Position numbers and translations under genes: made by a program. The notes beneath the pieces were generated by a model. The model was not told the origin of the DNA, searched no databases, and saw nothing but the letters and a program-made list of their open reading frames with translations. This document shows positions 13,023 through 58,708 of a DNA stretch of 64,000 nt, one piece after another. Position 1 is the stretch's first letter. The number at the start of each line of letters is the position of its first letter. The DNA comes from a candidate division WS6 bacterium OLB20 (GTDB lineage: Bacteria > Patescibacteriota > Dojkabacteria > B142 > OLB20): contig JYNZ01000006.1 of assembly GCA_001567355.1 (NCBI GenBank), positions 18,109 through 82,108 on the forward strand. Direction: 5' to 3'.

Positions 13023-13058
13023 GATGCTTGCTAAGTATACCCGCTAATCAGGTGCCGA

Positions 13059-21505: not shown

Positions 21506-21659
21506 CAACAAAACCTCTGCGTGGAACTGAAAAACAAACGTAACAGCCAACCATTCACTGCAGGTTAAGTTTGTACCCGACAATCACCGTCAGATCTACC
21601 AGAAGCAGATTATTCTTGACGGCTCGGTTATCTCGCGGCAGACAGTCCGCCCGGATCAG

Positions 21660-22010
21660 TTGCCTGACAGGATCGAGTCCGGCTTTCTGTTTAATGTGCA
21701 TACGCATCCGGATCATACTAATTCAAGCGGAGAGAAAACATACGGTTTCTTTTCTGATGTTGATATCACAAGTCTGCTTGGCTCAAATGCGTATCTGATG
21801 GGACTGGTCACTGATGAATTCTGGCTGGCATGCAAAACCTCGTCAGTAATCAAACAGATCGGTGGTGTGGGCCAGGAGATGCTGATGCGTATTACTGAAG
21901 AAACATACGAGAGCCGTGAGTTTCTTGCTGACGTGGTGCGGCGCGAGATGAAAAACTGGGGGCTCGTATTTTACCGCGGGACCTTTTCGGGCAGGCTTGA
22001 GAAGATCTGA
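21660..22010 (+). CDS. Hypothetical protein with HxH...SxxD motif (possible JAB/MPN-like metalloenzyme; weak)
   Basis: 'HTHPDHTNSSGEKTYGFFSDVD'. Only a TTG start is available; the frame is open upstream to 21531 without an ATG. Confidence 0.3.
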   Translation: MPDRIESGFLFNVHTHPDHTNSSGEKTYGFFSDVDITSLLGSNAYLMGLVTDEFWLACKTSSVIKQIGGVGQEMLMRITEETYESREFLADVVRREMKNWGLVFYRGTFSGRLEKI

Positions 22011-22054
22011 AGATTTTGCCGCCTGCTCCTGGTCAGTTATAATAGCCTGATTCT

Positions 22055-22840
22055 ATGAAACAGACTCTGCCAAAACTGAAACGTAATCAGATTGACCTGC
22101 TCAAAGAGCTGATACGCAGCAACCTGAAGTTGCGCTACAGTGATTCCATCCTGGGCGTGCTCTGGGTACTTATGAAGCCGCTCCTCAACTTCCTGACACT
22201 GTTTTTCGTCTTCGGGGCGTTCCGTCAGGGCTTTTCTGATGATAATTTTGCTGCGCGCCTGATGGTTGGACTGATCGTGTATACGTATTTTCAGGAGGGT
22301 ATAACCATCGGTATGAACTCTCTGATCAACATGAGCAACATCATTCTCAAGGTAAACTTCCCGCGCAATCTCGCCGTTCTTGGATCTCTGCTTGTCTCGC
22401 TGGTTAATTTTTTTATCAACCTCCTGATCATTCTTGTCCTGACGCTGACGATCAGTTTTGTTCCCGATCCGGTCGGGACTGTGTACTTTTTTGCCATCAT
22501 GTTTGTCCTGTTTATCTTTATGTACAGTGTGTCACTGATCAGCTCAATACTCGTGATTCGGATCAGGGACCTTCAGAATATTGTGCCGGTGATGTTTCAG
22601 CTCCTGTTCTGGGGATCAGCGATCTTTTACGACATTGATGAGCTTGATGGAACGATCGGTGATATTGTCAGGGCCAACCCCATTGCGATTATTATTGATG
22701 CCTGCAGAAACGCGGTTGTTGACGGTCAGATTACCTATCTGCCGCAGTTTCTGGCATTGATTGCGATTACGCTTGTCATGTTTGTACTCGCGCGTATCTA
22801 CTTCTCTCATCAGGTAAAACTTGTTGCAGAACACATCTAA
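22055..22840 (+). CDS. wzm: ABC-2 type polysaccharide export permease (Wzm/TagG-like)
   Basis: 6-TM ABC-2 pattern, 'LKLRYSDSILGVLWVLMKPLL'. Stop is adjacent to the ATG of the following ATPase. Confidence 0.85.
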   Translation: MKQTLPKLKRNQIDLLKELIRSNLKLRYSDSILGVLWVLMKPLLNFLTLFFVFGAFRQGFSDDNFAARLMVGLIVYTYFQEGITIGMNSLINMSNIILKVNFPRNLAVLGSLLVSLVNFFINLLIILVLTLTISFVPDPVGTVYFFAIMFVLFIFMYSVSLISSILVIRIRDLQNIVPVMFQLLFWGSAIFYDIDELDGTIGDIVRANPIAIIIDACRNAVVDGQITYLPQFLALIAITLVMFVLARIYFSHQVKLVAEHI

Positions 22841-24205
22841 ATGAATACACCGATAATCGAAGTTAACAATCTGACCAAGTACTTCAGTATTCCGCACGAA
22901 CGGCGCGATACGTTGAAGAGTGTTGTAATCAATCCCTTCAAACGCATTAAGAAGGAGACCTTCAGAGCGCTCGAAAATGTCAGTTTTACGATCAACAAGG
23001 GTGAGTTTGTCGGCCTTATCGGTCGTAACGGAAGCGGAAAAAGCACGCTGCTGCAGGTACTTGCCGGTATCTATGCTCCGAGTTCAGGCACCGCGGACGT
23101 GAACGGTACAGTCATCCCGTTTCTTCAGCTGGGCGTAGGCTTTAATGACGAACTGTCGGGTCGCGAGAATGTCTTTCTCAACGGAACAATCCTGGGCATG
23201 ACGCGCGAGTATCTTGAAAAACGCTATGAAGACATTGTCGACTTCGCCGAGATCGGTGACTTTATGGATCTGCAGCTGAAAAACTATTCCAGCGGAATGC
23301 GGATACGTCTTGCGCTGGCGATTGCGGTTCAGGCTCATGCGGACATCTATCTGCTGGACGAGGTGCTGTCTGTCGGCGATGATGCGTTCCGCCAGAAGAG
23401 TCTGGCAAAAATGCAGGAATTTCTCCGTAATGGAGCCACGGTTATTTATGTGTCGCACGGGATGGATACGATCAGACAGATGTGCAGCAGGGTGCTCCTT
23501 CTTGAGGACGGCAAGCTGACATTTGACGGTGATGTGGATGAAGGTCTGACACGCTATCAGCTCTCGTATCTCAATAACAGGCAGGATTCGTCAAAACGGT
23601 TTGGCAAAGCACCTGACGAGCGGGTGATAGATTTCGTTAATCCCTACCGCTCCTCATACGGTGAGGTAAAACTGACGGATGTGAGTCTTAACGGACAGAG
23701 CGACCAGAACACGTTTCACCTTGCTACAGACCAGGAGTACACAATGAGCTTTGAGCTGGAACTTGTCTCTGAAGAGCTGCAGGATCCATGGGTCGGACTG
23801 AGCGCAACCCGGGTGCAGAATCCGGAACTTGATATTTACTATGTCGTAAAGCCTCATGTGCTCGAGGATATAAAAAAACTGAAGAAAGGTGAGAGGCTGA
23901 CGCTTACGTTTAAGGATCGCATGCCGCTAAATCCAGGTGAATATGTCTTCAGGCTGCGAATGGGATCACACGTCGGAGCAGAAGAACGTCAGAAGCACAA
24001 CGCCATGGTTGAAGCCAAGGGACTTAAAAATTATGACCGTTCGAACATGATCTTTCAGCAGGCGTTCATCATCAAAGTAGGACTGTCTGATACTGAACAG
24101 AACGCAGCAGAAAAACGTCCGCGTCAGGGTATGCTGTCCAATAGCGGTACCGTGACTGTTGAACCTGAGGCTGTTGTTTTACAGGCAGTGAATGTTGTAC
24201 TATAA
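22841..24205 (+). CDS. wzt: ABC polysaccharide export ATP-binding protein (Wzt/TagH-like) with extra ~200-aa C-terminal domain
   Basis: Walker A 'GRNGSGKST', signature 'YSSGMRIRLALA', Walker B 'IYLLDEVLSVGDD'. The C-terminal extension is consistent with a substrate-recognition domain. Confidence 0.85.
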   Translation: MNTPIIEVNNLTKYFSIPHERRDTLKSVVINPFKRIKKETFRALENVSFTINKGEFVGLIGRNGSGKSTLLQVLAGIYAPSSGTADVNGTVIPFLQLGVGFNDELSGRENVFLNGTILGMTREYLEKRYEDIVDFAEIGDFMDLQLKNYSSGMRIRLALAIAVQAHADIYLLDEVLSVGDDAFRQKSLAKMQEFLRNGATVIYVSHGMDTIRQMCSRVLLLEDGKLTFDGDVDEGLTRYQLSYLNNRQDSSKRFGKAPDERVIDFVNPYRSSYGEVKLTDVSLNGQSDQNTFHLATDQEYTMSFELELVSEELQDPWVGLSATRVQNPELDIYYVVKPHVLEDIKKLKKGERLTLTFKDRMPLNPGEYVFRLRMGSHVGAEERQKHNAMVEAKGLKNYDRSNMIFQQAFIIKVGLSDTEQNAAEKRPRQGMLSNSGTVTVEPEAVVLQAVNVVL

Positions 24206-24238
24206 TCCCGTAATTCTACTAAGTTACTAGACAATGTC

Positions 24239-25387
24239 ATGAACGAGCCACACGGCGGTAAACTTATCAACCGGATCATCCCGAAAGAGGAGCTTGATCT
24301 GGATAATATCGATCTTGAACTCACACTCGACAGCGACCAGGTGAGTGAGGTGAAAAATATTGCGACTGGTATCTACAGCCCCCTCACGGGATACATGAAT
24401 CAGGATGATCTGGAAAGTGTGATTGCAAAGTCACGACTTGCTGACGGGACACCCTGGACCATCCCGGTGTTTCTCCCGCTGAGCAAGGCAGATTTTGACA
24501 AGGTCAAGCCCGGCTCGCAGATTCTGCTCAAACGCACTGAAGGTGACAGTGATGTCCCGTTCGCTGTTCTGATTGTGTCCAGCACCTTCACGTATGACCA
24601 GGAGGAGTACGTTCAGAGTGTCTATGGCACAAAAGATAGCGACCATCCGGGAGTTGCGATGGTAAAAAGCAGGGAACCCCGTGCCGCAGGAGGAGACATC
24701 TGGGTATTCGGCGAACTGCCCCGGCTGCATGACCAGTATGACATGACACCCGAAGAGACACGTGCACTGTTTGCCAGCAAAGGCTGGAAGACCATCACCG
24801 GTTTTCAGACCCGCAACGCCGCTCACCGGGCGCATGAATTTATCCAGAAACTCTGTCTCGAGTTTGTAGACGGGTTGTTCGTCAATCCGATCATCGGAAA
24901 AAAGAAATCGGGCGACTTCAAGGACGAGGTCATCCTCGCAGTATACAGTATGCTCATCCGCGACTTCTATCCCGATAACTCGACTGCTCTGGGTATTTAC
25001 ACCTCGCGTATGAACTACGCCGGTCCCAAAGAGGCGATCTTTCATGCGATTGCCCGTAAAAACTTTGGCTGTACACACTTCATTGTTGGAAGGGATCATG
25101 CGGGAGTAGGAAATTACTATGACAAGCTTGCCTCTCACAGAATCTTTGACGAATTCGAGGATCTGGGAATAACACCGATGCGTGTAAGTAACGCATTTTT
25201 TGATAAAAAGTCGGACATGTACACAACCCAGAAGACATCACCGTTTGGACCCGAGCACTGGATTGCACCAAGCGGAACCGAGGTTAGGCGTCTTATCAAG
25301 GAAAAGGATTATGACGGGCTGTTCTACATTCTCCGCAAGGAAGTGCTTGACGAGATTTTGAAATTCGACAATCCTTTTGTAGAATAA
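24239..25387 (+). CDS. sat: Sulfate adenylyltransferase (ATP sulfurylase)
   Basis: 'PHGGKLI', 'QTRNAAHRAHE', 'GRDHAGVG'. Confidence 0.9.
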   Translation: MNEPHGGKLINRIIPKEELDLDNIDLELTLDSDQVSEVKNIATGIYSPLTGYMNQDDLESVIAKSRLADGTPWTIPVFLPLSKADFDKVKPGSQILLKRTEGDSDVPFAVLIVSSTFTYDQEEYVQSVYGTKDSDHPGVAMVKSREPRAAGGDIWVFGELPRLHDQYDMTPEETRALFASKGWKTITGFQTRNAAHRAHEFIQKLCLEFVDGLFVNPIIGKKKSGDFKDEVILAVYSMLIRDFYPDNSTALGIYTSRMNYAGPKEAIFHAIARKNFGCTHFIVGRDHAGVGNYYDKLASHRIFDEFEDLGITPMRVSNAFFDKKSDMYTTQKTSPFGPEHWIAPSGTEVRRLIKEKDYDGLFYILRKEVLDEILKFDNPFVE

Positions 25388-25410
25388 ACGTTCATTTTTC
25401 AACTATCAGC

Positions 25411-25956
25411 ATGAAAGTAAAAAACTCGTTTTGCATGTGGTTTACCGGCCTCCCGTCATCCGGTAAAACGACAACAGCTGCAGCACTCAGGCAGCGTCTG
25501 TACGATGAAGGGGTAACCGTGATCCATCTCGATGGTGACGTCGTGCGCAAGGGACTTAACTCTGATCTCGGACTTTCCGAGAAGGACCGTGAAGAAAACA
25601 ACCGCCGTATCATCCATGTCAGTGAGATCGTAGTCAGTGGGGGTGTCCCTGTCTTAAGTTCTTTTATTTCGCCGTTCAAAAAGACGCGTGATTTCGCCAA
25701 AGAGATCATCCCCAATTATATCGAAGTGTACGTCAGTACTCCGGTTGAAGTCTGTATGGAGCGTGATGTTAAGGGACTCTATGCCAAAGCTAAAAAGGGC
25801 GAGATAACCGGAATGACCGGACTGGACGCACCGTACGAAGTCCCCGAGTCGCCGGAGATTGTGCTGGAAACAACAGAGCACTCGCTGAAGGACAATATCG
25901 ACTCCATCGTGCGTTATCTGACAGAGAACGACTATCTGGAGGAGACTGACAGGTAG
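25411..25956 (+). CDS. cysC: Adenylyl-sulfate kinase (APS kinase)
   Basis: 'CMWFTGLPSSGKTT' P-loop, 'SFISPF', 181 aa. Confidence 0.9.
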   Translation: MKVKNSFCMWFTGLPSSGKTTTAAALRQRLYDEGVTVIHLDGDVVRKGLNSDLGLSEKDREENNRRIIHVSEIVVSGGVPVLSSFISPFKKTRDFAKEIIPNYIEVYVSTPVEVCMERDVKGLYAKAKKGEITGMTGLDAPYEVPESPEIVLETTEHSLKDNIDSIVRYLTENDYLEETDR

Positions 25957-26049
25957 CGACCGAATGCTCCTGGTTACAGTGTAACCTGCGGGTTTGCCAT
26001 ACGGACACCCTCTGGTACAATCATATGTACCTGAAACCTGAAGTGTCGC

Positions 26050-26946
26050 ATGAAGAAAATACGTGAGCTTATCCCGGCGCTGTCCCCAAAAGACATCGTA
26101 TTGTTTGGTGTGGGCCGCAGCGGAACAACCTGGCTGGGACAGCTGCTGGCGAGTGCCGGACTTGAATATGTGTTTGAACCCGAAGCCTACTGGAACTTTC
26201 TCCCGCACGAAGAAACCCGCGACCGCAAGCGCTACCCGATGCCGCATCACTACCTGCGCGCAGGTCAGAAGACCCCCTACGATCACTTCTTCACAAAGGC
26301 ATTACGTGGAGAGTACAAGAACGAAGAAACAGTTCGAGCCAATCCCGGAGCAAAGCGCAAGGTAATCAAGGTTATCAGGATGAACCTCATGATCCCCTGG
26401 ATTCTTGAACGGGTGAATGTCCAGCCTGTGTATCTGATGCGTGATCCGATGGCCACAATCGCGTCACAGGTTTCATGCGACTTCGAGACAACTGTCCCGC
26501 GTCTAACCAGCTATTTTTATCAGGATGAGCTGTTTGAGGACCACCTCGAGCCGTTTCGTGACCTTATAGAACAGGCAGATTCAAGCAAAGGCAGAACATC
26601 TTACATTGAGTACCTGACCATTCTCTGGTGTGTTCAGACTTACGTAGCCAGACGACAGGGGGTATTTGATACTGTTCATACCATCAGGTACAGAATGCTG
26701 CTGCTTCAGCCGTATAAGCTGCTCTGGGATATTGCAAACAGATTTTCGCTCGACTTCAATTTTGAGGCTCTGGATCGTGAGATTGCGAAAAAATCATTTA
26801 CCACACACTCGCTCGACGAGAATCACGATCCCCTGAATAACTGGCGGAATGTGTTTTCTGATGACGAAGTAAAGCTGATTGTAGATATCATTAAGGTATT
26901 TGGACTTGCCGAATACATCGGATCAGATGACCTGAAGCAACAGTAA
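26050..26946 (+). CDS. PAPS-dependent sulfotransferase
   Basis: 5'-PSB 'VGRSGTTWLG' and 3'-PB 'YLMRDPMATIAS' motifs. Confidence 0.75.
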   Translation: MKKIRELIPALSPKDIVLFGVGRSGTTWLGQLLASAGLEYVFEPEAYWNFLPHEETRDRKRYPMPHHYLRAGQKTPYDHFFTKALRGEYKNEETVRANPGAKRKVIKVIRMNLMIPWILERVNVQPVYLMRDPMATIASQVSCDFETTVPRLTSYFYQDELFEDHLEPFRDLIEQADSSKGRTSYIEYLTILWCVQTYVARRQGVFDTVHTIRYRMLLLQPYKLLWDIANRFSLDFNFEALDREIAKKSFTTHSLDENHDPLNNWRNVFSDDEVKLIVDIIKVFGLAEYIGSDDLKQQ

Positions 26947-26995
26947 AGCTTTGCCTGTGTATCTGCTATAATTCCCCAAATACTACAAAATCGCT

Positions 26996-28150
26996 ATGAA
27001 GCAAGCACAACCGGCGCTGCCTCCTGTTTTCATTATCGGTGCGGAACGTTCGGGAACAACACTGCTTCGTCTGATGCTCAATGCCCACCCTGACCTTGCA
27101 ATACCCCCGGAGTCTCTGTTCGTTGATGAGCTGTACAGGACGTTTTCCGGTAAGGATCTGACCCGACAAGACATTCCGGTTATTGTTGATGCCATGTTTG
27201 CAGACCTCAAATTCCCGGACTGGGGGCTGGACCGTGCTGAGGTTACAGAAGCGCTGGGACAGCTTTCGACACTTGATCTCAGCTCTGTAGCAGCGGTACC
27301 GTACCGGCTCTACGCGAAGAGGAACAAAGCGAAATTCTGGGGTGACAAGAACCCGTATTATTCCCTCAGGACGGACATGCTGCGTGAGCTGTTCCCTGAT
27401 GCATTGTTTGTTCATCTCAAACGTGATGGCAGGGATAATGTGATCTCGCTGCTTGAGGTAAACTGGGACTTCGGCCCGAAGTCAGTGGCTGATGCGACTA
27501 TCCGCTGGAGAGACTATATTGTGGCTGCCCACAACGCTGCGCAGGAGCATCCTGACAGCTTCATAGAGCTTTCCTATGAGGATCTTGTCTCTCAACCTGA
27601 AGCAGAGATCAAGCGCATCTGTAAGTTCCTCGGACTCGGATTTGATCCGGCTATGCTGGAATTTCATAAAGAGAACGAGGGAGGAAAACTCATTCCCGAC
27701 AGTCAGAAACGCTTTCAGGAGAGTACATTTAAGCCGGTAAACACATCTCGGCTTGGCAGAGGGCTCAGTAAAATGTCTGCATCTGATGTGTTCACTTTCC
27801 AGGCGCTGTCTGTGGATACGCTTCTGGCAAACGGATATGAGTTTCTCGATCCTGTGACAAGAAAACCTGCAGATGCTGCAGCAAACTATGCGCAGTATCG
27901 GACTGCCGGACTGGTGCTCGAGATGGAATCAGAGCTTAAGCGTCAGCTTGCCGATATGCTTGACGAGAGAACCGAGCAGATGCGTCAGGAAAAAGAGATT
28001 GCCGTAAAACGTCAGAACGAATTTATCACAAAAGAGCTTGAACGCATGCACAATCTCATGAAGGATTATGTAGCGGAACGTACCAGCTTTAAACATAAAA
28101 TTGATTACGCACTATCGCGACTTATCCCATGGCGAAGAAAACGCAGATAA
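26996..28150 (+). CDS. PAPS-dependent sulfotransferase (second) with C-terminal coiled-coil tail
   Basis: 5'-PSB 'GAERSGTTLL', 3'-PB 'LKRDGRDNVIS'. C-terminal 'ELKRQLADMLDERTEQMRQEKEIAVKRQNEF'. Confidence 0.75.
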   Translation: MKQAQPALPPVFIIGAERSGTTLLRLMLNAHPDLAIPPESLFVDELYRTFSGKDLTRQDIPVIVDAMFADLKFPDWGLDRAEVTEALGQLSTLDLSSVAAVPYRLYAKRNKAKFWGDKNPYYSLRTDMLRELFPDALFVHLKRDGRDNVISLLEVNWDFGPKSVADATIRWRDYIVAAHNAAQEHPDSFIELSYEDLVSQPEAEIKRICKFLGLGFDPAMLEFHKENEGGKLIPDSQKRFQESTFKPVNTSRLGRGLSKMSASDVFTFQALSVDTLLANGYEFLDPVTRKPADAAANYAQYRTAGLVLEMESELKRQLADMLDERTEQMRQEKEIAVKRQNEFITKELERMHNLMKDYVAERTSFKHKIDYALSRLIPWRRKRR

Positions 28151-28953
28151 ATTTCAGTGTCGTCATCCCGTATTACAATATGGGAGCATATGTCGACGAA
28201 GCGATTGCAGCTGTCGACGCACAGACTCTGGATGGAGTCGAACTGATCATCGTCAATGACGGCTCGACAGAACCCGAGTCTCTTGCAGTGCTTGATCGTA
28301 TCCGTCGTGAACGCACTGATATCAAAATTATCGACCAGCAAAACAAAAAACTCCCCGGCGCCCGCAATACAGGTGTAAAAGAAGCCTCAGGGCGATATGT
28401 AGCCTGCCTTGATGCGGACGATTCATGGGATCCGGAGTATCTGAAGAAGGCATTTGAGGTCTACGAACGCGATACACAGAACATGATTGCAATAGTCACA
28501 AGCTGGGTGCAGTTTTTTGGTGAGCGCAATGATATCTGGCAGGTTCCTGATTTTGATCTCCCGCAGATGTTCATTGCCAACCCGCTGCAGAGTTCAAGCA
28601 CATTCCGCAGGTCTGTCTGGCAGGAGCTCGGAGGGTTTGATGAGACCATGGTGCACGGATATGAGGACTGGGATTTCTGGATGAGAGCTGTAGCAAAGGG
28701 GTACGAATGGCGTTCCATACCTGAGACGCTGATCAGATATCGGAGCAGGTCGGATTCAATGGTGGTTGATTCTGATAAACGGCGCTACGAACTGTACGAG
28801 TACATTCTCACTAAAAACAGTAAAATGCTGGCGGAATCCGCTGTGCCAGTACTGGTGCAGGCACTCAGGAGGTATGATGATTTACACCGGCGGTATAATG
28901 ATGCGAAGGGCCGGTCACTGGTCTCGCGTATTGCCAATCTTATAAAGCCATAA
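28129..28953 (+). CDS. Family 2 glycosyltransferase
   Basis: 'FSVVIPYYN', 'LIIVNDGSTEP', 'ACLDADD'. Confidence 0.8.
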   Translation: MAKKTQINFSVVIPYYNMGAYVDEAIAAVDAQTLDGVELIIVNDGSTEPESLAVLDRIRRERTDIKIIDQQNKKLPGARNTGVKEASGRYVACLDADDSWDPEYLKKAFEVYERDTQNMIAIVTSWVQFFGERNDIWQVPDFDLPQMFIANPLQSSSTFRRSVWQELGGFDETMVHGYEDWDFWMRAVAKGYEWRSIPETLIRYRSRSDSMVVDSDKRRYELYEYILTKNSKMLAESAVPVLVQALRRYDDLHRRYNDAKGRSLVSRIANLIKP

Positions 28954-28958
28954 CAGTT

Positions 28959-31900: not shown

Positions 31901-32392
31901 GACGGGAAGATTACCGTACTGAAAAAAGACCTGCCCGAGGAAAACGACGTGTACCGCACATTTACGACATACTTCCAGCAGGGTGTGCTGGAGGCTGTTC
32001 CTGCAATAGCTCAGGTTGTCAGTGCTTTCGGGATCTCGAGTCTGGAGGCTCGACCATACGCGCTGGAACTTACAGAAGCAATGATGCTGCGCCCCGAACG
32101 TATACTGACAAGAGCCTACTTCAGCCTGGTTCACAATGACACCTTTGGAGATGCACGAGAACTGGATATGAAAAAACTTTCAGGACTGCCGTTGTGGCAG
32201 ATGCTGCTGGCACCTCTTGTACCGGCCGTGTTCAGGTCCGTTATGCACAAAGCTGACAGATCAATGTGGCATAACGGCTTTTTTATTTATAATGATCCGA
32301 CAGGTCTGTTTAACAGGTACATTCTGCTGCGCAAACAGATCCGTCGCAAACTTACTGCTTTGCGCATCAAGGTCTCTACATACCGGGGCTGA
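28959..32392 (+). pseudogene. Large multidomain protein (GT4 glycosyltransferase + HAD-like phosphatase + unknown C-terminal domain) split by 1-nt frameshift (ORFs 28959..30431 and 30464..32392)
   Basis: GT4 'FSPTNPSRTPFEMMAAGLPVVE'. HAD motif I 'FDIFDTLL' sits at the end of ORF1, and HAD motifs II-IV ('ILLSDFYMTS', 'LHIGDSLPADIEGAAKAG') sit at the start of ORF2. ORF2's frame is open upstream to 30374. Adding one A to the A4 run at 30416-30419 fuses them. Confidence 0.6.
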
Positions 32393-32424
32393 TCGCAGGC
32401 ATTATATGCTAAGATTTCTGTACC

Positions 32425-33399
32425 ATGAAGATCACCGTAATAGTAAATACGCTTAACCGTCCCGAGTCACTTGCTCTGTGCCTTGAATCTCTCCGCAAAC
32501 AGACATACAAGGATTTTGAAGTTGTGGTCGTCGATCAGAGCCGCAACAGACGAAGCAAGGCAGTCTGCAAACCGTATAATCTCAAGTATTACCGTATTCG
32601 TAAACGGAACAATCTTTCTGTCTCGCGTAATTACGGTATCAACATGGCAGCAGGAGATGTGCTTGCATTCATCGATGATGATGCACAGGCGCGAGAGGAT
32701 TGGATAGAACGTATCGCTGCAGCTTTCAGCTCCGAAGAGGCACCTGATCTGATCGCCGGACGGGTAATTGACGTATCGGATCCCGAAAATCCCGTCACGC
32801 AGTTTCAGAATGGAATAGTGTCATCATTCGGTTACACAGAGGATATCCGTCCATCTGACGAGCGCCGCTACGGCAAAGGTCATGCAGGCTGGTATCTGCG
32901 ACCCATGGGGGCAAACATGATTCTTCGCAAGCAGGCCGCTGTCGCGGCTGGCGGTTTTGACGAGTTTTACGAATACATCCATGACGAGACCGACATTGCC
33001 GTCAGGTTGATAAAAAACGGCGGCACTGCTGTCTACGATGACCAGCTGATTGTAGAACACAATCCGGCACTTGGAAGAAACCGAAAAAAGCGTGGCGGCA
33101 CCAACTGGTTTGCACTTGCCAAAAACAATCTCTACTTTGCACTCAAAAACGGAACCGGTCCTGCACCGCTTAAGATACTGCGCGCGCTCTGGCGTGTGCT
33201 TGGCGGCAGGGGGCCTTACGCAACACTTCTGCAGATGTTTGTCCACCGCAGGATCTGGCTTGTGGCGTTTGTGTTTAATGTACTCAAGGTTACTGCCGGT
33301 ATTGCAAAAGGATTTAATGGCGGCCTGCTGAAACGAAGACGTACAAGAACATTTGGCGAGCCCACAGAATATGTGTTATTCGCAAAACGTCATGAGTAG
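32425..33399 (+). CDS. Family 2 glycosyltransferase
   Basis: 'KITVIVNTLNRPESL', 'AFIDDDA'. Confidence 0.8.
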   Translation: MKITVIVNTLNRPESLALCLESLRKQTYKDFEVVVVDQSRNRRSKAVCKPYNLKYYRIRKRNNLSVSRNYGINMAAGDVLAFIDDDAQAREDWIERIAAAFSSEEAPDLIAGRVIDVSDPENPVTQFQNGIVSSFGYTEDIRPSDERRYGKGHAGWYLRPMGANMILRKQAAVAAGGFDEFYEYIHDETDIAVRLIKNGGTAVYDDQLIVEHNPALGRNRKKRGGTNWFALAKNNLYFALKNGTGPAPLKILRALWRVLGGRGPYATLLQMFVHRRIWLVAFVFNVLKVTAGIAKGFNGGLLKRRRTRTFGEPTEYVLFAKRHE

Positions 33400-33679
33400 C
33401 ATGCCTCCCAAACCCGAAGAACTGCTAAGTCGTCTTCGTGATCTTCTTGAACAGGAGGGGATTTCCACTCCGGCCGGAGCTGCGGCTGATGACCGTATTA
33501 TCGCAGAGTATGTTCTGCCTGCTCTAGAACACAGTCAGAATGTTCTTGCCGATCTGTACTCATCCGTCAGTGGAGGCAGCGGAAGTCTTAAATCTCTCAA
33601 GCAGAAAATAATCGGCAAGGTTGCAAGTGTGTCCCGCAATACCGTTGAAAAAAAGTCTGATGCGACAGCAGCGCTATAA
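33392..33679 (+). CDS. Small hypothetical protein inside the glycan locus
   Basis: 96-aa ORF (from second ATG) overlapping the preceding stop by 8 nt; no motif. Confidence 0.3.
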   Translation: MSSMPPKPEELLSRLRDLLEQEGISTPAGAAADDRIIAEYVLPALEHSQNVLADLYSSVSGGSGSLKSLKQKIIGKVASVSRNTVEKKSDATAAL

Positions 33680-33745
33680 CGAGATGATGCTGACCCTTGT
33701 CAGGTATCTTTACGAACAGCAGCGAGCAAAAGAAACTAAAGACTA

Positions 33746-35953
33746 ATGCATATTCAGATAGTCGGCCCGGCAGTATCGGAGTATTCCCTTGCCCGGGTAA
33801 ACAGACTCCTTGCCCGGCACCTTGCTTTGATTCCGGATACAAAGGTAACACTATACGCACCGGAGCTGCTTGCGGGCAGGGATGTACGGCCGGCCGATCT
33901 TGATCGCTATCCCTGGCTCCGTGAGATGTACGTGACAGAACAGGGACGTCCCGATGTTCAGATCTTCTGCGCGTTTCCTAAAAGCACCGGGGATTCACTG
34001 GGCTTGCAGGCTCTTACTGCACCGCACAGGATGATCTATCTTGCCTGGGAGGAAACGGGGTTTCCGTCAGAGTGGGTGGACGAGATCAACCGTCACATCA
34101 CTGTTGTGCTGGCTCCCAGCGTTCATGTCGCCCGGGTGCTTGAGCGGGCAGGTGTTAACCGTCCTGTCAGCGTGATACCGCTGGGCATTGAAAAAGTTAC
34201 TCCCGATAAGGCCTATCAGACAGTAACGGATGCAGAATGCACATTCCTCCATATCAGTTCGGGTCATGCCCGCAAGGGGCTTGATGTACTGCTGGATGCC
34301 TATGAGCAGGCGTTTACCGGCGGGGACAACACTCTGCTTGTACTTAAGCTGTTTCCAAACCCCAACCTTGACCTTGATGCGATACGGTCACGGTTTGCAA
34401 CGACGGGTAAGCCCCGTCTGCAACTGATTGATGATCCTGAACTCACAGACAGTCAGATCGCCGCACTGTATCAGCAGGCAGACTGCGTTGTTCTGCCTAC
34501 ACGTGCTGAGGGCTTCGGTTTGCCTATGGCAGAGGCAATGCAGACCGGTGCTCTGCTGATTACAACAGGATACAGCGGCCAGATGGATTTCTGTGATGAG
34601 CGTTCGGCTCTGCTTCTTCCGTACAAACTGGTCCCGGCAGTAGAATCACATCACGGGCTGCCCGGATCAATGTGGGCACAACCGGATACAGATGCTCTGG
34701 CAAAGCTTATGAAACGGGTTTACAAAAACCCTGATGGAGCAGAATTCTCTGCCATGCGCGAGCAGGCAAAAAAGAACGTTGCAGATCTGACATGGGAGAA
34801 TACAGCTTCCGCCGTTGCTGCTGTTGCCGCCCAGCTGCCGCGTCTGTCGTCTCTGTCGGTTAAGCGTGCTGCTGTTGTGAGTCCGATTCATACACCTGGC
34901 GGAGTAGCGGAGTATACCCGTGAGCTCTACCAGCCGTTACGCAGTGTTTTTTCGGAACTTCGTTTCTTTGCAGATATTGCAGTCCCGGTGACTGAAGATC
35001 CTGCTGTTGACCGGTGCTGGAACGGCAGAGACACGCAAACACTGACTGACCGACTCAAAGAGTATGCGCCTGATATCCTGCATATCCAGTACCACACCGA
35101 CTTCTTTACACCCGAGCAGCTGGGTATGCTGCTGGCTGAGTCCGCCGGTCATACCGATATGTATGTGACACTGCATATTGTGCCGGAGGGACTTCCCGTA
35201 GCAGCACTGGAGCAGTGCAGAACAGTCTGGGTTCATTCTGTCGCAGATCAGTCCAGGATGCATGCGGCTGGACTTGAAAACGTGAGGATTGCACCACACG
35301 GGATTCCTGATGCCCTGCCGCGACCCGCTGATCAGCTCAGGGACAGGCTTGGAATCCCGCATCAGCCGGTTGTGGCGACCCACGGCCTGCTGCATGACCG
35401 TAAAGGTGTGCTGGAGCTGGTCGACAGTCTGCCAATGCTGCTGAATACATTCCCCGATATGCTCTTGCTGCTGGTTAGTGCTGTCAGCTCTGCAAACAGT
35501 ACATCGCAGGGTGTAAGTGCTCAATTACATCACAAAATCAAAGACCTGCAGCTGGAGCACCATGTCGTTCATATCTCTGACTTCCTGTCGTTCCCCGAAG
35601 TTGTAACGATGCTGCAGCTTGCTGACCTGATTGTACTCCCGTACCACGAGCTTGGAGAGGGTACAAGCGGTGCTGCCCGGACTGCCATGGCTGCAGTAAG
35701 ACCAATGGTGACGAGCGATATCGGAATGTTCGCGGAAGTACCTGCGCACAGAATCTCAGACAGCACGCCGGTTTCTATAGCAGGAGCGGTTGCTGAGGTT
35801 CTAAATGACAAATCATTGCTTGATGATCTGCGCAGGCAGGTCCGTGACAAACTGGAGCTGCAGGCGTGGAGACGTGTGAGTTACGAGTACGCAATCTCGC
35901 TGTCCGAGAGTTCTGCGTCATCATCTGCAACTTTAAATACCCAGACCTTGTAG
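33746..35953 (+). CDS. Two-module GT4 glycosyltransferase (tandem GT-B domains, WbdA-like)
   Basis: Two GT4 C-terminal cores: 'VVLPTRAEGFGLPMAEAMQTGALLITT' and 'IVLPYHELGEGTSGAARTAMAAVRPMVTSD'; 735 aa. Confidence 0.8.
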   Translation: MHIQIVGPAVSEYSLARVNRLLARHLALIPDTKVTLYAPELLAGRDVRPADLDRYPWLREMYVTEQGRPDVQIFCAFPKSTGDSLGLQALTAPHRMIYLAWEETGFPSEWVDEINRHITVVLAPSVHVARVLERAGVNRPVSVIPLGIEKVTPDKAYQTVTDAECTFLHISSGHARKGLDVLLDAYEQAFTGGDNTLLVLKLFPNPNLDLDAIRSRFATTGKPRLQLIDDPELTDSQIAALYQQADCVVLPTRAEGFGLPMAEAMQTGALLITTGYSGQMDFCDERSALLLPYKLVPAVESHHGLPGSMWAQPDTDALAKLMKRVYKNPDGAEFSAMREQAKKNVADLTWENTASAVAAVAAQLPRLSSLSVKRAAVVSPIHTPGGVAEYTRELYQPLRSVFSELRFFADIAVPVTEDPAVDRCWNGRDTQTLTDRLKEYAPDILHIQYHTDFFTPEQLGMLLAESAGHTDMYVTLHIVPEGLPVAALEQCRTVWVHSVADQSRMHAAGLENVRIAPHGIPDALPRPADQLRDRLGIPHQPVVATHGLLHDRKGVLELVDSLPMLLNTFPDMLLLLVSAVSSANSTSQGVSAQLHHKIKDLQLEHHVVHISDFLSFPEVVTMLQLADLIVLPYHELGEGTSGAARTAMAAVRPMVTSDIGMFAEVPAHRISDSTPVSIAGAVAEVLNDKSLLDDLRRQVRDKLELQAWRRVSYEYAISLSESSASSSATLNTQTL

Positions 35954-36399
35954 ATCAGAAAAGTCCAGATAGTCTGCAGGCCGGTGACAATTATTTTTGC
36001 CACAACCGGATTGATTCGCAAGTGTTCCACCTGCACAGACAGGATCAGATTGTTAAACAGGAAATTGAATGCAGAAATCGCCGCATACTTCATCAGTTTA
36101 CTGCGTTTTCTGCCGCCGCCTGCTTTAAAGGTCCAGTAGTTGGATGCTGTAAAGTTGAAACTGAGTGATGTCAGCAGCGAAATAACATTGGAGGCAAGAA
36201 CCAGAACAGCTTCCGGCGAGAGGCTGACTGCGGTACCGACTGCAAATGCCCAGTCAGGCGTAGGCTGAGAGCGGAAAAAGTTAAGAAGAAAGTTATACAA
36301 GAGAAAGTCGATGGCAAATGACGTCACACCGACCAGCAGATAGCGGAAGTAACTGCGCATAAGAATCTGTCTGGCTGTTGCTTTAATTCGCTTTTTCAT
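35881..36399 (-). CDS. gtrA: GtrA-family membrane protein (polyprenyl-phosphate-sugar translocation)
   Basis: 4-TM, 'YFRYLLVGVTSFAIDFLLY', 'NYWTF'. Its 3' end overlaps the convergent GT4 gene by 73 nt. Confidence 0.75.
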   Translation of the reverse strand: MKKRIKATARQILMRSYFRYLLVGVTSFAIDFLLYNFLLNFFRSQPTPDWAFAVGTAVSLSPEAVLVLASNVISLLTSLSFNFTASNYWTFKAGGGRKRSKLMKYAAISAFNFLFNNLILSVQVEHLRINPVVAKIIVTGLQTIWTFLIYKVWVFKVADDDAELSDSEIAYS

Positions 36400-37466
36400 C
36401 AGGATTCAATTATTGACAGCAGTCTGTCTGCGGTTACGTCCCAGTTATACCGTTCTGTTACAAACGTTCTGGCATCGGGCGGCGTTGTATTCAGAAGTGA
36501 CGTAAGTGCAGAACTGATTATAGCCGGATCGGTCGGGTTAGTGAAGAGCGCATGGCCTGCAAGCGTCTCCCGAAATACCGGTATATCAGATACCAGAACG
36601 GGGACGTTATTATACAGAGCTTCAACAGGTGGCATCCCGAATCCCTCGTAGAAGCTGATATAGACAAAACCTGCGGCCCGTTTATACAGTCCTGCCAGGT
36701 CTTCGTTGCGGACATAGCCAAGGAAGATGACATCCTTTTCCAGCCCCAGCCTGCTTACTGTTTCAAATATGTCTTTATAAAACCAGCCCTTCTTGCCAAC
36801 AACCACAAGAGGCATTCCGGCTGATTCACGGATTTTCGCATATGCCTCGATCATATTGATATGGTTCTTGCGAGGTTCAAGGGTTGACACGCTCAACAGG
36901 AAACGATTAGGCAGCTGCTGCAGTATCTCAGATGATTCGTCACTGTGATTGCTTACGATCCACGGATTGAGACCCGGATAGAGCACACTGATGTCAGGAG
37001 TTTTCCTGCCGGCAAATGTTTCAAGTTCCGTTCTGACTGCCTCGGAGACGGTTGCGACCTTCCATGCATGTTTCAGCAGTTTTGCGGCTGATCGTTTATA
37101 GGTGAATGCTGCTTTGCGACTGAAGTATTGCGGGTATATAACCGGCGCGAGATCGTGGATAAACTGTATAGTCTTGGGGAAAAGCCACGCAAATGAGTGA
37201 TTTGATGGAGAGATAAACAGATCAAGGTTTTTGCGCTTTGCATCACGGACAACTGCACCTATCCAGCGTCTGCCTGATAGCGGCAGGCTCCTGTTGACCC
37301 GGATTACAATGTTTTCAGCCTGGGGCAGAAACCGCGGAGCCGATGTATATATGTAATACCTGTTTCGCTTATCACGTTCGACAAGGCGTGAGATCAGACT
37401 GATGGTGTACTGCCCGATACCAGCAGGGGACAGTTCAACCGGTGACAGATCAACACCTATCTTCAT
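36399..37466 (-). CDS. Family 4 glycosyltransferase
   Basis: 'SFYEGFGMPPVEALYNNVPVLVSDIPVFRE' (E-x7-E). Confidence 0.8.
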   Translation of the reverse strand: MKIGVDLSPVELSPAGIGQYTISLISRLVERDKRNRYYIYTSAPRFLPQAENIVIRVNRSLPLSGRRWIGAVVRDAKRKNLDLFISPSNHSFAWLFPKTIQFIHDLAPVIYPQYFSRKAAFTYKRSAAKLLKHAWKVATVSEAVRTELETFAGRKTPDISVLYPGLNPWIVSNHSDESSEILQQLPNRFLLSVSTLEPRKNHINMIEAYAKIRESAGMPLVVVGKKGWFYKDIFETVSRLGLEKDVIFLGYVRNEDLAGLYKRAAGFVYISFYEGFGMPPVEALYNNVPVLVSDIPVFRETLAGHALFTNPTDPAIISSALTSLLNTTPPDARTFVTERYNWDVTADRLLSIIES

Positions 37467-38154
37467 GGTTCAAATCGTAAGCGGATTACCTGAAGAATAA
37501 TATCCAGTCCGTCCTTCATGTTAATTTTTTTCCCTTCTTTTTTATCGCGGGGAAAGTAGGCAACTTCAAATTCGCGGAATGACCACTTCTTCCGGAGTGC
37601 CTTGACCACCCATTCTATCTCAAGCCCGAAGCGTTCGGCTTTGATGTGCAGTGTTTTAAACTTGTTCAGCTTACAGAGCTTGTACGCGCAGAGAGGATCG
37701 GCAATGCTGCGGCCATAGAGGACTTTTAAAAGAAGTGTAGTGGTAAATTTGCCCAGCCTTGTAACAGTATTCACCTTTTCCTTCAGAACCCGCTTGCCGA
37801 AGATGATGTCGACCGGTTCGCGTTCGATCAGCTCAAGCATTCTAAGAATATCATCCGGATCCAGTTCTGAATCTGCATCTTCCACGATCATATACTCTCC
37901 TTTAGCGTGGGATGCACCATTCTGAACGCTGCGCCTTTTCCTTTATTGTGTGCATGCAGTATTAGCTTGAGTCGAAGCTCAGGTTGCAGTTTTTTCAGAA
38001 TCTCACGGCTGCCATCGGTGGAGTAGTCGTCGATAACGATAATTTCCTTATCGACAGGCAGAGCATGGATGCGCCTGACAGCGGTTTCAACTGTTTTACG
38101 TTCATTCCAGACCGGCATAATGACGGTAAGTTTAGGCCGGCGGATCTCAGGCAT
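37463..38154 (-). pseudogene. gtrB: Polyprenyl-phosphate glycosyltransferase (GT2, GtrB/DPM1-like) split by 1-nt frameshift (ORFs 37888..38208 and 37463..37891)
   Basis: 'LTVIMPVWNE', 'IIVIDDYSTDGS', 'HNKGKGAAFR' then a frame change. The alternative frame reads '...NGASHAKGEYMIVEDADSELDP', matching the GT2 consensus. The deletion is in a T/A run near 37905-37912. Confidence 0.7.
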
Positions 38155-39147
38155 AGTCGGCATCGGTTCTTTTCTGTTCCCATTCCCAGGCGCTGGAAAT
38201 GATGTCATCTAATGTATATCTGGCTTCCCAGCCCATTGCCTCTTTGATCCTGGAGGGATTAGCAACAAGTCTGGCAGAGTCACCTTCGCGTCTGGGGGCT
38301 GTATCATATTCCACTTTTTTACCCGTGACTTTCTCGGTCGTTTTGATTACATCAAGAATGCTCGACCCGGTACCGTCCCGACATTAAAAGCGCTAAAACC
38401 TTTATGGTGCTGCAGATAGTCGATGCATGCAGCATGTGCATCAGCCAGATCCATGACATGGATGTAGTCTCTGAGCGCGGTGCCGTCCGGCGTGTCATAG
38501 TCTGTCCCGAAAACTTTGAGTCTGAAGTCATCAGCAAGCAGGCCATGCAGCAGTCTTGGTATCAGATGTGTCTCGGGGCGGTGACGTTCTCCCATGACAC
38601 CTTTGTATGAGCCTGCGGGATTAAAATAGCGCAGTGCCACAACGTTAATACCTGCAAACTTTGTGTAGGACTCCAGAATCTGCTCTGTGATGTGTTTTGT
38701 CAGTGCGTAGGGGTTTTCGGGGTGCAGCGGGTCGTCCTCTTTAATCGGTACACGTTCCGGTGTTCCGTAGACTGCGGCAGAACTGCTGAAGACGAAGTTT
38801 TTCACCCCGTTTGTAATGAGGATATCAAACAGATGCTGACTTCCGACTACATTGTTGTTTACAAACTGTACAGGTTCCTGTGTGGAAATACCGACCTCTA
38901 TTGATGCGGCAAAGTGAATAACTGCATCAAATGTCCGGCCTGCAAGTTTTGTTCTGACCTCAGCCAGGGATTTAAGTTCTGTCTGCAGCAGCTCAAATTC
39001 GCCGCCGTGTGTTCTGACAGCATTGAGGATCTCCTCCTTGTCTTTTTCGAGGTGGTCGAGAATGGTGACTGTGTGTCCCTGCTGCAACAGGACGAGGGCA
39101 GTATGAGACCCGATGTAGCCCGCACCACCGGTGATAAGAATATGCAT
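38147..39147 (-). pseudogene. galE: UDP-glucose 4-epimerase with 1-nt frameshift near 38370-38378
   Basis: 'MHILITGGAGYIGSH', 'YxxxK' region. The ORF stops at '...FNVGTVPGRAFLM*', but the -1 frame continues 'GTGSSILDVIKTTEKVTGKKVEYDTAPRREGDSARLVANPSRIKEAMGWEARYTLDDIISSAWEWEQ' (canonical GalE C-terminus) down to a stop at 38147. Confidence 0.8.
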
Positions 39148-58681: not shown

Positions 58682-58708
58682 AATGATACAATTATACCGC
58701 TTAGAACG

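Follow-up and report, generated by a model that had tools for sequence, protein, structure and literature searches.

A conserved Dojkabacteria locus predicted to make and export a sulfated cell-surface polysaccharide

Why would a bacterium of the candidate phyla radiation (CPR) encode its own supply of activated sulfate in the middle of a glycan operon? The question is raised by a 64,000-nt stretch of DNA from candidate division WS6 bacterium OLB20, hereafter the window. On its plus strand (22055-35953), genes for an ATP-binding cassette (ABC) exporter are followed by genes for the synthesis of 3'-phosphoadenosine-5'-phosphosulfate (PAPS), two sulfotransferase genes and a series of glycosyltransferase (GT) genes. 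OLB20 is placed by NCBI in Candidatus Dojkabacteria, within the CPR. Of ten proteins of the region that were checked, eight, among them Wzt, Sat, the first sulfotransferase (ST1), the HAD/ribofuranosyltransferase protein and the tandem GT4, have an exact OLB20 counterpart with a GenBank accession between KXK25831 and KXK25849, and the second sulfotransferase (ST2) has one too. The genomes of CPR bacteria, or Patescibacteria, are reduced; the cells are believed to live on the surface of others, and their own surface chemistry is hardly known. On the basis of profile searches, structural models and gene order in relatives, we consider it likely that this is a conserved Dojkabacteria cell-surface glycan locus that makes a sulfated exported polysaccharide.

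Gene content of the plus-strand unit

The genes of the unit are listed below, together with the open reading frame (ORF) immediately upstream. Six other contexts of the clade served for comparison: the ERZ27297709 contig, L086/L087 (the closest relative, CP129475.1, a complete genome of 1.17 Mb), L088, L089, L090 and L091. CBM stands for carbohydrate-binding module, APS for adenosine-5'-phosphosulfate, TPST for tyrosylprotein sulfotransferase and PRPP for phosphoribosyl pyrophosphate.

22055-22840, plus strand: wzm, ABC-2 type permease (Pfam ABC2_membrane, 51.6 bits)
22841-24205, plus strand: wzt, ABC ATPase whose C-terminus is a putative CBM-like domain (ABC_tran, 82 bits; Wzt_C, 31.1 bits)
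24239-25387, plus strand: sat, ATP sulfurylase of the homomeric type (Pfam PUA_2 and ATP-sulfurylase, 243.7 bits)
25411-25956, plus strand: cysC, APS kinase (Pfam APS_kinase, 189.3 bits)
26050-26946, plus strand: ST1, divergent PAPS-type sulfotransferase without a C-terminal extension (Sulfotransfer_3, 34.4 bits; Sulfotransfer_1, 26.1 bits)
26996-28150, plus strand: ST2, TPST-like Sulfotransfer_3 enzyme (Sulfotransfer_3, 141.6 bits; a second Sulfotransfer profile, 47.7 bits)
28129-28953, plus strand: GT2 glycosyltransferase whose start overlaps ST2 by 22 nt (Glycos_transf_2, 100.4 bits)
28959-32392, plus strand: WsaF-like GT-B, HAD phosphatase and PRPP-dependent ribofuranosyltransferase, in that order in one ancestral gene, with a 1-nt deletion at ~30402
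32425-33399, plus strand: GT2 glycosyltransferase of the conserved core (Glycos_transf_2, 93.3 bits; 46-68% identity in L087, L088 and L090)
33401-33743, plus strand: x119, small conserved protein (119-124 aa in relatives), with a frameshift in an A7 run at ~33648-33654
33746-35953, plus strand: tandem two-module GT4 of the conserved core (Glycos_transf_1 and Glyco_trans_1_4; 84.7 bits)
21325-22010, plus strand: x232, conserved protein homologous to the 231-232 aa ORF ahead of wzm in relatives, with two homopolymer frameshifts

Both enzymes of the PAPS module are well defined. Sat scores 424.7 bits against the NCBIfam sulfate adenylyltransferase model and retains the motifs QTRNAAHRAHE (QxRNxxHxxH type) and GRDHAGVG (GRDHAG type). 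CysC reaches 210.2 bits against TIGR00455, for which the cut-off is 138.7, and has an intact P-loop (GLPSSGKTT) and DGDVVR motif (DGDxxR type). The profiles and intact catalytic motifs bear out the initial annotation of an ATP sulfurylase followed by an APS kinase. The nearest homologues of Sat are 50-71% identical and form a clade in which all named members are Dojkabacteria; the next homologue falls to 49%.

The two sulfotransferases exceed the Pfam cut-offs of both Sulfotransfer_3 (27 bits) and Sulfotransfer_1 (22 bits). In ST1, the 5'-phosphosulfate-binding (5'-PSB) motif is G-V-G-R-S-G-T-T-W and the 3'-phosphate-binding (3'-PB) motif is R131-D-P-M-A-T-I-A-S139; in ST2, these are E-R-S-G-T-T-L and R143-D-G-R-D-N-V-I-S151. 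The initial annotation had read an RSGTT and an RD(G/P)RD motif in both proteins, which is correct for the 5'-PSB of both and for the RDGRD of ST2; ST1 lacks an RDPRD and has RDPMATIAS. Only six homologues of ST1 were found among 5.8 billion proteins, and their alignment shows no variation in GxGRSGTTWLG, FEP and R.P....S. L090 encodes an orthologue with 37% identity. Likewise, the 5'-PSB, the 3'-PB and a PPE motif are invariant across the alignment of the ST2 family, to which the ST1 profile aligns with 97.4% probability (hhalign). Sequence searches of the PDB returned nothing significant for ST1, so a fold search was required. The AlphaFold2 (AF2) model of ST1 has a mean predicted local distance difference test score (pLDDT) of 80.6, and its top-50 Foldseek matches in the PDB are all PAP(S)-sulfotransferases, the best with an E-value of 4e-6. 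The top-50 matches of the ST2 model (pLDDT 90.6) are again all PAP(S)-sulfotransferases, led by TPST1/2 (6e-13) and followed by the CurM ST and mycobacterial Stf enzymes (Stf9). Separately from the fold search, ST2 matches NoeE weakly. The models thus predict the PAPS-binding P-loop alpha/beta fold, the lack of which the initial annotation had named as a refutation, in both proteins, and agree with the Pfam scores and motifs in supporting two PAPS-type sulfotransferases. Whether their acceptor would be a glycan, a peptide or a lipid is read from gene context.

Profile searches also confirm the exporter. Wzm has at least five hydrophobic segments, is 42-65% identical to the Wzm of relatives and is encoded directly against wzt, with a gap of 0 nt. 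The CBM-like domain of Wzt (residues ~270-382, nt ~23648-23986) lies just above the Wzt_C gathering cut-off of 30.4 bits, and a PDB sequence search with the C-terminus gave only weak matches (E ~0.06) to the Wzt CBMs 6o14/8dky. The same domain is recorded for Wzt in the P0023 contig and in L088, L089, L090 and L091; the L087 protein stays below the cut-off (21.6 bits). Wzt has, in addition, sub-threshold matches to NodI models.

The glycosyltransferases required more revision. Five GT-type genes are present on the plus strand rather than four, and the ORF described as a GT4-HAD fusion (30464-32392) does not encode a GT4. It is the second part of an ancestral gene whose first ORF (28959-30431) matches WsaF_C (37.5 bits) and WsaF in the PDB (E 4e-4). 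The second ORF encodes 642 aa, for which Pfam gives a HAD domain plus 450 aa without assignment; phmmer aligns its residues 5-564 to residues 76-631 of PDB 7shg_A, annotated 'Ribofuranosyl transferase', with an E-value of 2.8e-23. It also matches the polymerase Bcs3 of Haemophilus influenzae b, and the identity to enzymes of the 7SHG/Bcs3 type is low (85 bits). Both parts form a single ORF of 1141-1143 aa in L087 and L090. The HAD motif I (SFDIFDTLLRR) is contiguous with the rest of the protein in these two loci and lies in OLB20 at the end of the WsaF-like ORF, upstream of the frameshift at ~30402. An enzyme with these two domains, of the type of 7SHG and Klebsiella pneumoniae ORF5-O4, transfers ribofuranose-5-phosphate from PRPP and then strips the phosphate (PMC11231755). 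Given the presence of a PRPP-dependent ribofuranosyltransferase, the polymer probably contains ribofuranose. The two-module architecture proposed for the last GT4 is correct, as two separate stretches match both Glycos_transf_1 and Glyco_trans_1_4. This protein has 37-43% identity to its counterparts in L087 and L091, and a cut ORF in L088 matches at 42% over its N-terminal 72 residues.

Two small genes of the locus are conserved and have zero Pfam matches. The frameshift in x119 was recognised by tblastn with the L087 protein, which matches in two frames, and that of x232 in the same way, as the L087 query (7066-7764) gives two high-scoring segment pairs in different frames; the frames were inspected in both cases. 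x232 holds an 'HTHPxH...S..D'-like stretch that is reminiscent of JAMM/MPN metalloenzymes.

Conservation of the locus and alternative explanations

The gene order wzm-wzt-sat-cysC is contiguous in all six clade loci besides the window. Two short metagenome contigs (L093, L094) also have wzt directly upstream of sat, which brings the adjacency to nine loci. Stop and start codons are frequently coupled: in five loci the end of wzt runs 4-8 nt into sat, and in four loci sat and cysC share 4 nt. Sat homologues of 45% identity or less have no wzt neighbour. The metagenome scan with Sat returned only nine loci, two of them informative. The upstream order IleRS ... FAD-oxidoreductase-lgt-fmt-x232 is conserved as well (IleRS, isoleucyl-tRNA synthetase), with the ~232 aa x232 always between fmt and wzm in Dojkabacteria loci. 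The synteny check that had been suggested, for sat, cysC and a sulfotransferase beside wzm/wzt in related genomes, is therefore positive in six further Dojkabacteria-type loci.

Within the window, neighbouring genes between wzm and the tandem GT4 are spaced by -22 to 93 nt, and terminator-like sites are found in none of the gaps of the plus-strand unit; the terminator scan gave 16 sites overall against 17.6 expected from shuffled sequence. A boundary between wzt and sat, at 24205-24239, had been named as a feature that would separate the PAPS genes from the glycan operon. There is no terminator at this point. There is a sigma-70-like match (TTTACA-17-TATAAT, 11 of 12 positions) at 24178-24206, which ends on the wzt stop codon just ahead of sat and may be an internal promoter without an operon boundary. 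Promoter-like matches are only modestly enriched (29 versus 19.7 ± 4.2 expected). On the plus strand, sigma-70-like hexamer pairs precede wzm (22016-22043), sat (24178-24206), cysC (25358-25385) and ST1 (25994-26021), each within ~60 nt of the gene. These may be internal promoters or merely AT-rich junctions, and the consensus is of the sigma-70 type, which may not be that of the CPR.

The gene that follows the PAPS module is informative. A sulfotransferase gene stands directly after cysC in five of the seven full-core loci; the exceptions are L089, in which a sulfotransferase is encoded ~9 kb downstream, and L091. The enzyme in this slot is of the ST1 type in the window and L090 and of the ST2 type in the ERZ27297709 contig. 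In L088, it belongs to a third Sulfotransfer_3 subfamily, members of which are encoded further downstream in L089 and L090, and in L087 it is a Sulfotransfer_2 protein (87.7 bits), of the carbohydrate-sulfotransferase family. Because the enzymes after cysC are non-orthologous and include Sulfotransfer_2, a glycan acceptor is favoured over protein tyrosine. The conserved order, the overlapping stop and start codons and the usual presence of a sulfotransferase place Sat and CysC within the glycan operon rather than in a cys regulon, and support the original reasoning that PAPS is made there for sulfation.

Taken across loci, the layout consists of a first core (wzm-wzt-sat-cysC), a second core (GT2-x119-tandem GT4) and a variable middle between them, in which between one and four sulfotransferases are encoded along with the WsaF-ribofuranosyltransferase, further glycosyltransferases and sugar-nucleotide genes. 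To judge from gene order, this would be the pattern of a serotype-like variable glycan on a conserved scaffold of export, activation and primer functions.

In the pathway that we propose, a polyprenol-linked glycan would be built at the cytoplasmic face of the membrane by the GT2 and GT4 enzymes and by the WsaF-like GT/ribofuranosyltransferase fusion with its HAD phosphatase. Sat and CysC, encoded directly behind wzt, would make PAPS on site. ST1 and ST2, as cytoplasmic PAPS-dependent enzymes, would then sulfate the nascent glycan, and Wzm/Wzt, with the CBM-like C-terminal domain of its ATPase, would export the product. We infer the sulfation, composition and anchoring of the glycan from this gene complement.

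The class of polymer must be considered with the host in mind. To our knowledge, CPR bacteria are usually described as lacking lipopolysaccharide (LPS) and an outer membrane, and OLB20 presumably lacks the latter too. The O-antigen status of the product cannot be presumed in a CPR host, and the comparison of the tandem GT4 with WbdA, with its O-antigen/LPS framing, is unsafe for WS6 OLB20. LPS-type genes (lipid A-core, WaaL ligase) are absent from the 64-kb window. A wall-, S-layer- or membrane-linked glycan is most likely, ahead of an LPS O-antigen.

Several observations weigh against a sulfated exported polysaccharide. Neither a PAP phosphatase, cysQ or sulfate permease gene nor an LCP protein or ligase was found in the window, and no initiating phosphoglycosyltransferase (Glycos_transf_4, Bac_transf; WecA/TagO/WbaP type) was found among the window ORFs searched; the initiating sugar-phosphate transferase may be encoded elsewhere in the genome. 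The nearest solved relatives of ST2, by sequence as well as fold, are protein-tyrosine sulfotransferases. Genes for the reductive branch were sought in the window and in 10-kb flanks of relatives, and an assimilatory use of APS or PAPS, through CysH and sulfite reductase, may be encoded elsewhere. Seven single-base frameshifts fall within 18.5 kb (~21325, ~21535, ~30402, ~33650, ~37925, ~38375 and ~39805), in x232 (two), the WsaF/ribofuranosyltransferase gene, x119 and, on the minus strand, a GT2 gene, a galE-like gene and aclA. Finally, the sulfated glycan is deduced here from genes.

The alternative that survives best concerns the substrate. The sulfotransferases could modify tyrosine in a protein or peptide, in the manner of TPST or RaxST, or a small glycolipid or lipo-oligosaccharide that leaves through an ABC-2 exporter, as do Nod factors through NodIJ. 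This would account for the tyrosylprotein sulfotransferases at the head of the PDB matches of ST2 and for the NodI-like matches of Wzt, and it draws further support from the marginal evidence for a CBM and from gene triads in other CPR genomes that combine a GT2, a sulfotransferase and a NodS-like methyltransferase. However, the ST2 stop codon overlaps the following GT2 gene, the closest relative has a carbohydrate-type Sulfotransfer_2 in the same slot, and the multi-module glycosyltransferases (the tandem GT4 and the WsaF-ribofuranosyltransferase fusion) are polymerase-like. Neither a precursor peptide nor a peptidase-domain exporter is present at the locus, and TPST is merely the nearest solved member of a large and mostly uncharacterised bacterial family. 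We regard a non-polysaccharide target as unlikely.

Less probable still is that Sat and CysC serve ordinary sulfur assimilation, with cysteine made via PAPS reduction, and are chance neighbours of a glycan operon in which the sulfotransferases are incidental. The two enzymes do catalyse steps one and two of assimilatory sulfate reduction in many bacteria, a strong sigma-70-like match lies directly upstream of sat, and L089 and L091 lack a sulfotransferase directly after cysC. Yet cysH, sulfite reductase, cysK/E and sulfate transporter genes were not found in the window or in the 10-kb flanks of relatives examined, wzt and sat remain adjacent in all nine loci, with the stop/start overlap in five, and the sulfotransferase follows cysC in most full-core loci and reappears downstream in L089. 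We consider this explanation very unlikely.

That the locus is decaying in OLB20, with true pseudogenes and no complete glycan, is the least probable alternative: the frameshifts are numerous, and the sequence is the same in the OLB20 proteins at NCBI and, without a mismatch in 21 kb, in a Logan assembly of SRR29904086, but short homopolymers (A7, A5, a T run, G runs) contain or adjoin at least five of the seven sites, the other two are compatible with the loss of one of two adjacent A or C bases, aclA, a housekeeping-type gene outside the glycan set, is also affected, and the genes concerned are otherwise well conserved, free of other lesions and intact in relatives. As position in homopolymers is the signature of homopolymer sequencing error, the frameshifts are probably sequencing or assembly errors.

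Wider searches with the ST2 family place these enzymes among several other types of locus. A contig scan returned 80 loci, mostly from metagenome-assembled genomes (MAGs) of Actinomycetota, and few have Wzt, Sat or CysC nearby; OLB20 itself was not among them. The top ST2 homologues of 615-665 aa, considered as sulfotransferases with a coiled coil, are instead tandem double sulfotransferases from high-GC Actinomycetota loci. Two high-GC glycan loci, L084 (ERZ25039531, 6835-18624) and L085 (ERZ25071726, 6177-11851), contain up to eight and four sulfotransferase genes, respectively, including 615-650 aa proteins of two tandem sulfotransferase domains, and L084 also has adjacent sulfatases. Judged against named genome matches, they are Actinomycetota-like, and they look like large uncharacterised sulfated-glycan systems. 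The compact triads of other CPR genomes, in which the ST2-like sulfotransferase is 38-43% identical and sat/cysC are not nearby, occur in Dojkabacteria HKST-UBA09 (L002/L005, 2108-4606) and a Saccharibacteria MAG (L003/L004, 3391-5904). By analogy, their composition recalls a Nod-factor-type decoration of a small glycan.

A possible sulfate cap

If the product is a sulfated polysaccharide, a further question is what the sulfate does. Capped glycans exported by ABC transporters have two hallmarks: Wzt carries a CBM, and the terminator sits on a coiled-coil ruler whose C-terminus binds the membrane. The caps known are methyl, methylphosphate, Kdo and (non-regulatory) pyruvate (PMC11231755). ST2 is similar in outline. 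In the AF2 model, residues 294-383 (nt 27875-28144) form one unbroken 90-residue C-terminal helix, ~13 nm long if straight, and the protein ends in ...LIPWRRKRR, with the basic tail PWRRKRR. The arrangement recurs: in each of six loci, a single sulfotransferase is extended at the C-terminus and ends in a basic tail, although the catalytic domains belong to three families that are not orthologous. In the window, L088, L089 and L090, ~60-90 residues of this extension are free of proline and glycine; in P0023 prolines and glycines interrupt it, and in L087 it is short. Pfam searches found no methyltransferase, kinase or Kdo-transferase terminator at the locus.

Given the likeness to both hallmarks and the lack of another terminator candidate, sulfate may be the cap. 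By analogy with WbdD and WbbB, ST2 would be the chain terminator, its helix and basic tail would act as the ruler, and the sulfate cap would be read by the Wzt CBM before export; we put this forward tentatively. A shade more speculative is the wider proposal that sulfate is a new cap chemistry, that a stalked sulfotransferase, held at the membrane by its basic C-terminus, is the ruler and terminator, that the Wzt CBM reads the sulfated non-reducing end as the licence for export, and that the polymer is a class-wide core surface structure in genomes of ~1.2 Mb.

Other findings caution against the cap. The Wzt_C match is marginal (31.1 versus 30.4 bits), as is the PDB match of the CBM (E 0.06). 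The ST2 helix has a period of 3.65 residues and no significant 3.5-residue heptad signal (p=0.85), and among the C-terminal extensions tested, heptad periodicity is significant only in L088 (p 0.001). For this reason, we describe the ST2 extension as a long amphipathic helix, which falls short of a proven coiled coil. Short Arg-rich C-tails are also common in the ST2 family outside Dojkabacteria, beside CBM-less Wzt, so the tail of ST2 may be a membrane tether only. There is no clean co-occurrence of a long-tailed sulfotransferase with a CBM-bearing Wzt outside Dojkabacteria, where most neighbouring Wzt are short.

Neighbouring genes, known systems and implications

The plus-strand unit converges on a set of minus-strand genes, for which the initial annotation had asked whether the two are co-transcribed. 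The features of that side are as follows.

35881-36399, minus strand: GtrA-family membrane protein, the last gene of its unit (GtrA_DPMS_TM, 75.2 bits)
36399-37466, minus strand: GT4 glycosyltransferase (Glycos_transf_1, 92 bits; 54-55% identity in L087)
37463-38208, minus strand: DPM1/GtrB-like GT2; a 1-nt deletion at ~37925 leaves two ORFs, which cover Glycos_transf_2 positions 1-71 and 84-132
38150-39147, minus strand: GalE-like UDP-hexose 4-epimerase, split by a 1-nt deletion at ~38375 (Epimerase, 185.9 bits)
43178-44266, minus strand: mannose-1-phosphate guanylyltransferase-like protein, manC (NTP_transferase, 78.7 bits, and ManC_GMP_beta-helix)

The two units lie on opposite strands and are convergent, and hence share no mRNA. 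All four families named for the minus-strand operon (GtrA, GT4, GtrB-like GT2 and galE) are present, with the qualification that the GT2 and galE genes are frameshifted. Frame analysis of the GT2 reads GKGAAFR followed by NGASHAKGEYMIVEDAD, and the epimerase ORF proper spans 38347-39147, with the C-terminal GalE segment running on in another frame. The unit is tightly packed from at least 42985 down to 35881 and contains, in order, an unassigned gene, aclB, aclA, the galE-like gene, GT2, GT4 and GtrA; it may start further upstream, at manC, CofD and ApbE. The manC-like enzyme could supply GDP-mannose to the GT4 enzymes, an association suggested by position.

The 3' ends of the GtrA and tandem GT4 genes overlap by 73 nt. 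The convergent GtrA-GT4-GT2 layout is found in CP129475.1 too, with an overlap of 19 nt. Conservation of this layout points to a functional connection, such as extracytoplasmic decoration through a polyprenyl-phosphate-sugar branch. Two components of a Gtr-type system, the GtrA-family protein and the polyprenyl-phosphate GT2, are both present, and a GT-C partner (GT-C, PMT or ArnT-type Pfam families) was not found in the window. Two multi-pass membrane proteins encoded on the plus strand at 5993-7294 and 53253-54638 (433 and 461 aa, six or seven predicted transmembrane segments) have zero Pfam matches even at E 0.1, and could fill the missing GT-C, ligase or transporter roles.

The ATP-citrate lyase genes at 39159-42249 (minus strand) encode a beta subunit (Citrate_bind, 241 bits; Citrate_synth_N, 194 bits) and then the frameshifted alpha subunit, aclA, which consists of a CoA-ligase and the citrate-synthase C-terminal domain. 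They lie in the packed minus-strand unit of the glycan genes, and their presence is unexpected in an organism thought to lack a tricarboxylic acid cycle.

Around the locus, the flanking genes are of the housekeeping kind (recA, RNase Y, type-2 isopentenyl diphosphate isomerase, two signal peptidases, IleRS, lgt and fmt), and GC content is ~0.50 and even across the locus, which indicates a chromosomal locus and no island. Together with the Dojkabacteria-specific clade of Sat, the even GC content favours vertical inheritance over a recent island. The whole window contains zero tRNA genes and zero Rfam families at the gathering threshold. Two tandem signal-peptidase-I genes (12363-13718, minus strand) and a gene for a cohesin-domain protein (46297-47028, minus strand), which shares 26 nt with the beginning of the ApbE gene, are compatible with a monoderm-type secretome and surface. 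IleRS (14016-18134, minus strand) is a protein of 1372 aa with an inserted His_Phos_1 (histidine-phosphatase) domain; the insertion is shared with L088 (1-3325) and L090 (627-4178) and is not recorded for CP129475.1. A 600-aa fusion of radical-SAM, Radical_SAM_C and GNAT acetyltransferase domains, encoded at 58661-60463 (plus strand), has an Elp3-like architecture that is uncommon in bacteria.

How far is the system new? The initial annotation stated that no cluster of this composition was recognised, which is too strong given the precedent of Cobetia marina KMM 1449, whose ABC-transporter capsule locus contains PAPS genes and sulfotransferases and has a solved sulfated product structure (PMC11766843). 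The two share ABC export, dedicated PAPS-synthesis genes, sulfotransferases and glycosyltransferases in one polysaccharide locus, and the Cobetia product is chemically proven. However, Cobetia is a Gram-negative gammaproteobacterium with KpsMTED/KpsSC group-III export, a heterodimeric CysD/CysNC, CysQ and a sulfate permease, whereas in OLB20 the exporter is Wzm/Wzt with a CBM-like domain, and a homomeric Sat and a separate CysC are encoded directly downstream of wzt.

The classical analogue is the rhizobial set of NodP/NodQ for PAPS synthesis, NodH as sulfotransferase and NodI/NodJ as ABC-2 exporter. There too, a dedicated second copy of sulfate activation accompanies a glycan sulfotransferase and an ABC-2 exporter. 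In contrast to OLB20, the product is a small lipo-chitooligosaccharide signal, the activating enzymes are of the CysDN type, and there is no CBM and no polymerase-type glycosyltransferase. The slg cluster of Geobacillus stearothermophilus NRS 2004/3a is similar in its monoderm-type host, in Wzm/Wzt export of a polyprenol-linked glycan and in WsaF (PDB 2x0d), of which OLB20 has a relative among its GT-B enzymes. It differs in that the non-reducing-end cap is 2-O-methyl rhamnose and in having no sulfation or PAPS module; conversely, rml genes and a WsaB-type oligosaccharyltransferase were not seen in the OLB20 window.

Capped O-polysaccharide systems offer the closest parallels for export and termination. 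In Klebsiella pneumoniae O3/O4/O5/O7/O12 and Escherichia coli O8/O9a (WbdA/WbdD, WbbB), Wzt has a C-terminal CBM, of which OLB20 has a putative counterpart, and the cytoplasmic glycosyltransferases are multi-module as in OLB20, and Klebsiella O4/O7 also use a PRPP-dependent ribofuranosyltransferase with a phosphatase domain (PMC11231755). The modifying enzyme of these systems likewise has a long C-terminal helix and a basic terminus. OLB20 differs in being a CPR host, in having a sulfotransferase as candidate terminator, a shorter helix and PAPS genes in the operon, and in that a WecA-type initiator and WaaL were not found in the window. Haemophilus influenzae b Bcs3 and the 7SHG protein (PMC10299916; PDB 7shg, 8a0c) provide a precedent for a ribofuranosyltransferase and phosphatase fused to another transferase; the partner in OLB20 is a WsaF-like GT-B, unlike the ribitol-phosphate transferase of Bcs3.

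In the open-access literature, we found no paper that ties CPR, Patescibacteria or Dojkabacteria to sulfotransferases or PAPS, and searches for 'OLB20' gave unrelated papers only. None joins a molecular ruler, a sulfotransferase and an ABC transporter, in a comparison that did not extend to the terminator census of Mann, Kimber & Whitfield 2019. The combination of PAPS genes, sulfotransferases, glycosyltransferases and an ABC exporter in one locus is thus already known. What is new is the lineage, the tight coupling of Sat/CysC to wzt across the Sat clade, the combination with a PRPP-dependent ribofuranosyltransferase fusion, and a sulfotransferase on a helical stalk.

For the biology of Dojkabacteria, the tight wzm-wzt-sat-cysC core, which is present even in a complete genome of 1.17 Mb, implies that a costly PAPS pathway is kept only for sulfation of an exported glycan. 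The implied product is a functionally important and strongly anionic surface polymer. The locus adds a monoderm-type, Sat/CysC-based case to the few genetically defined bacterial sulfated polysaccharides, and its candidate carbohydrate sulfotransferases, of three families, may be of use in glyco-engineering. If the stalked sulfotransferase is indeed a terminator, the repertoire of caps in ABC-transporter-dependent glycan synthesis would be wider; and if sulfate is the cap, the polymer would be a core surface structure of presumed episymbionts, for example in attachment to the host. In either case, the locus offers a testable handle on the envelope of an uncultured phylum.

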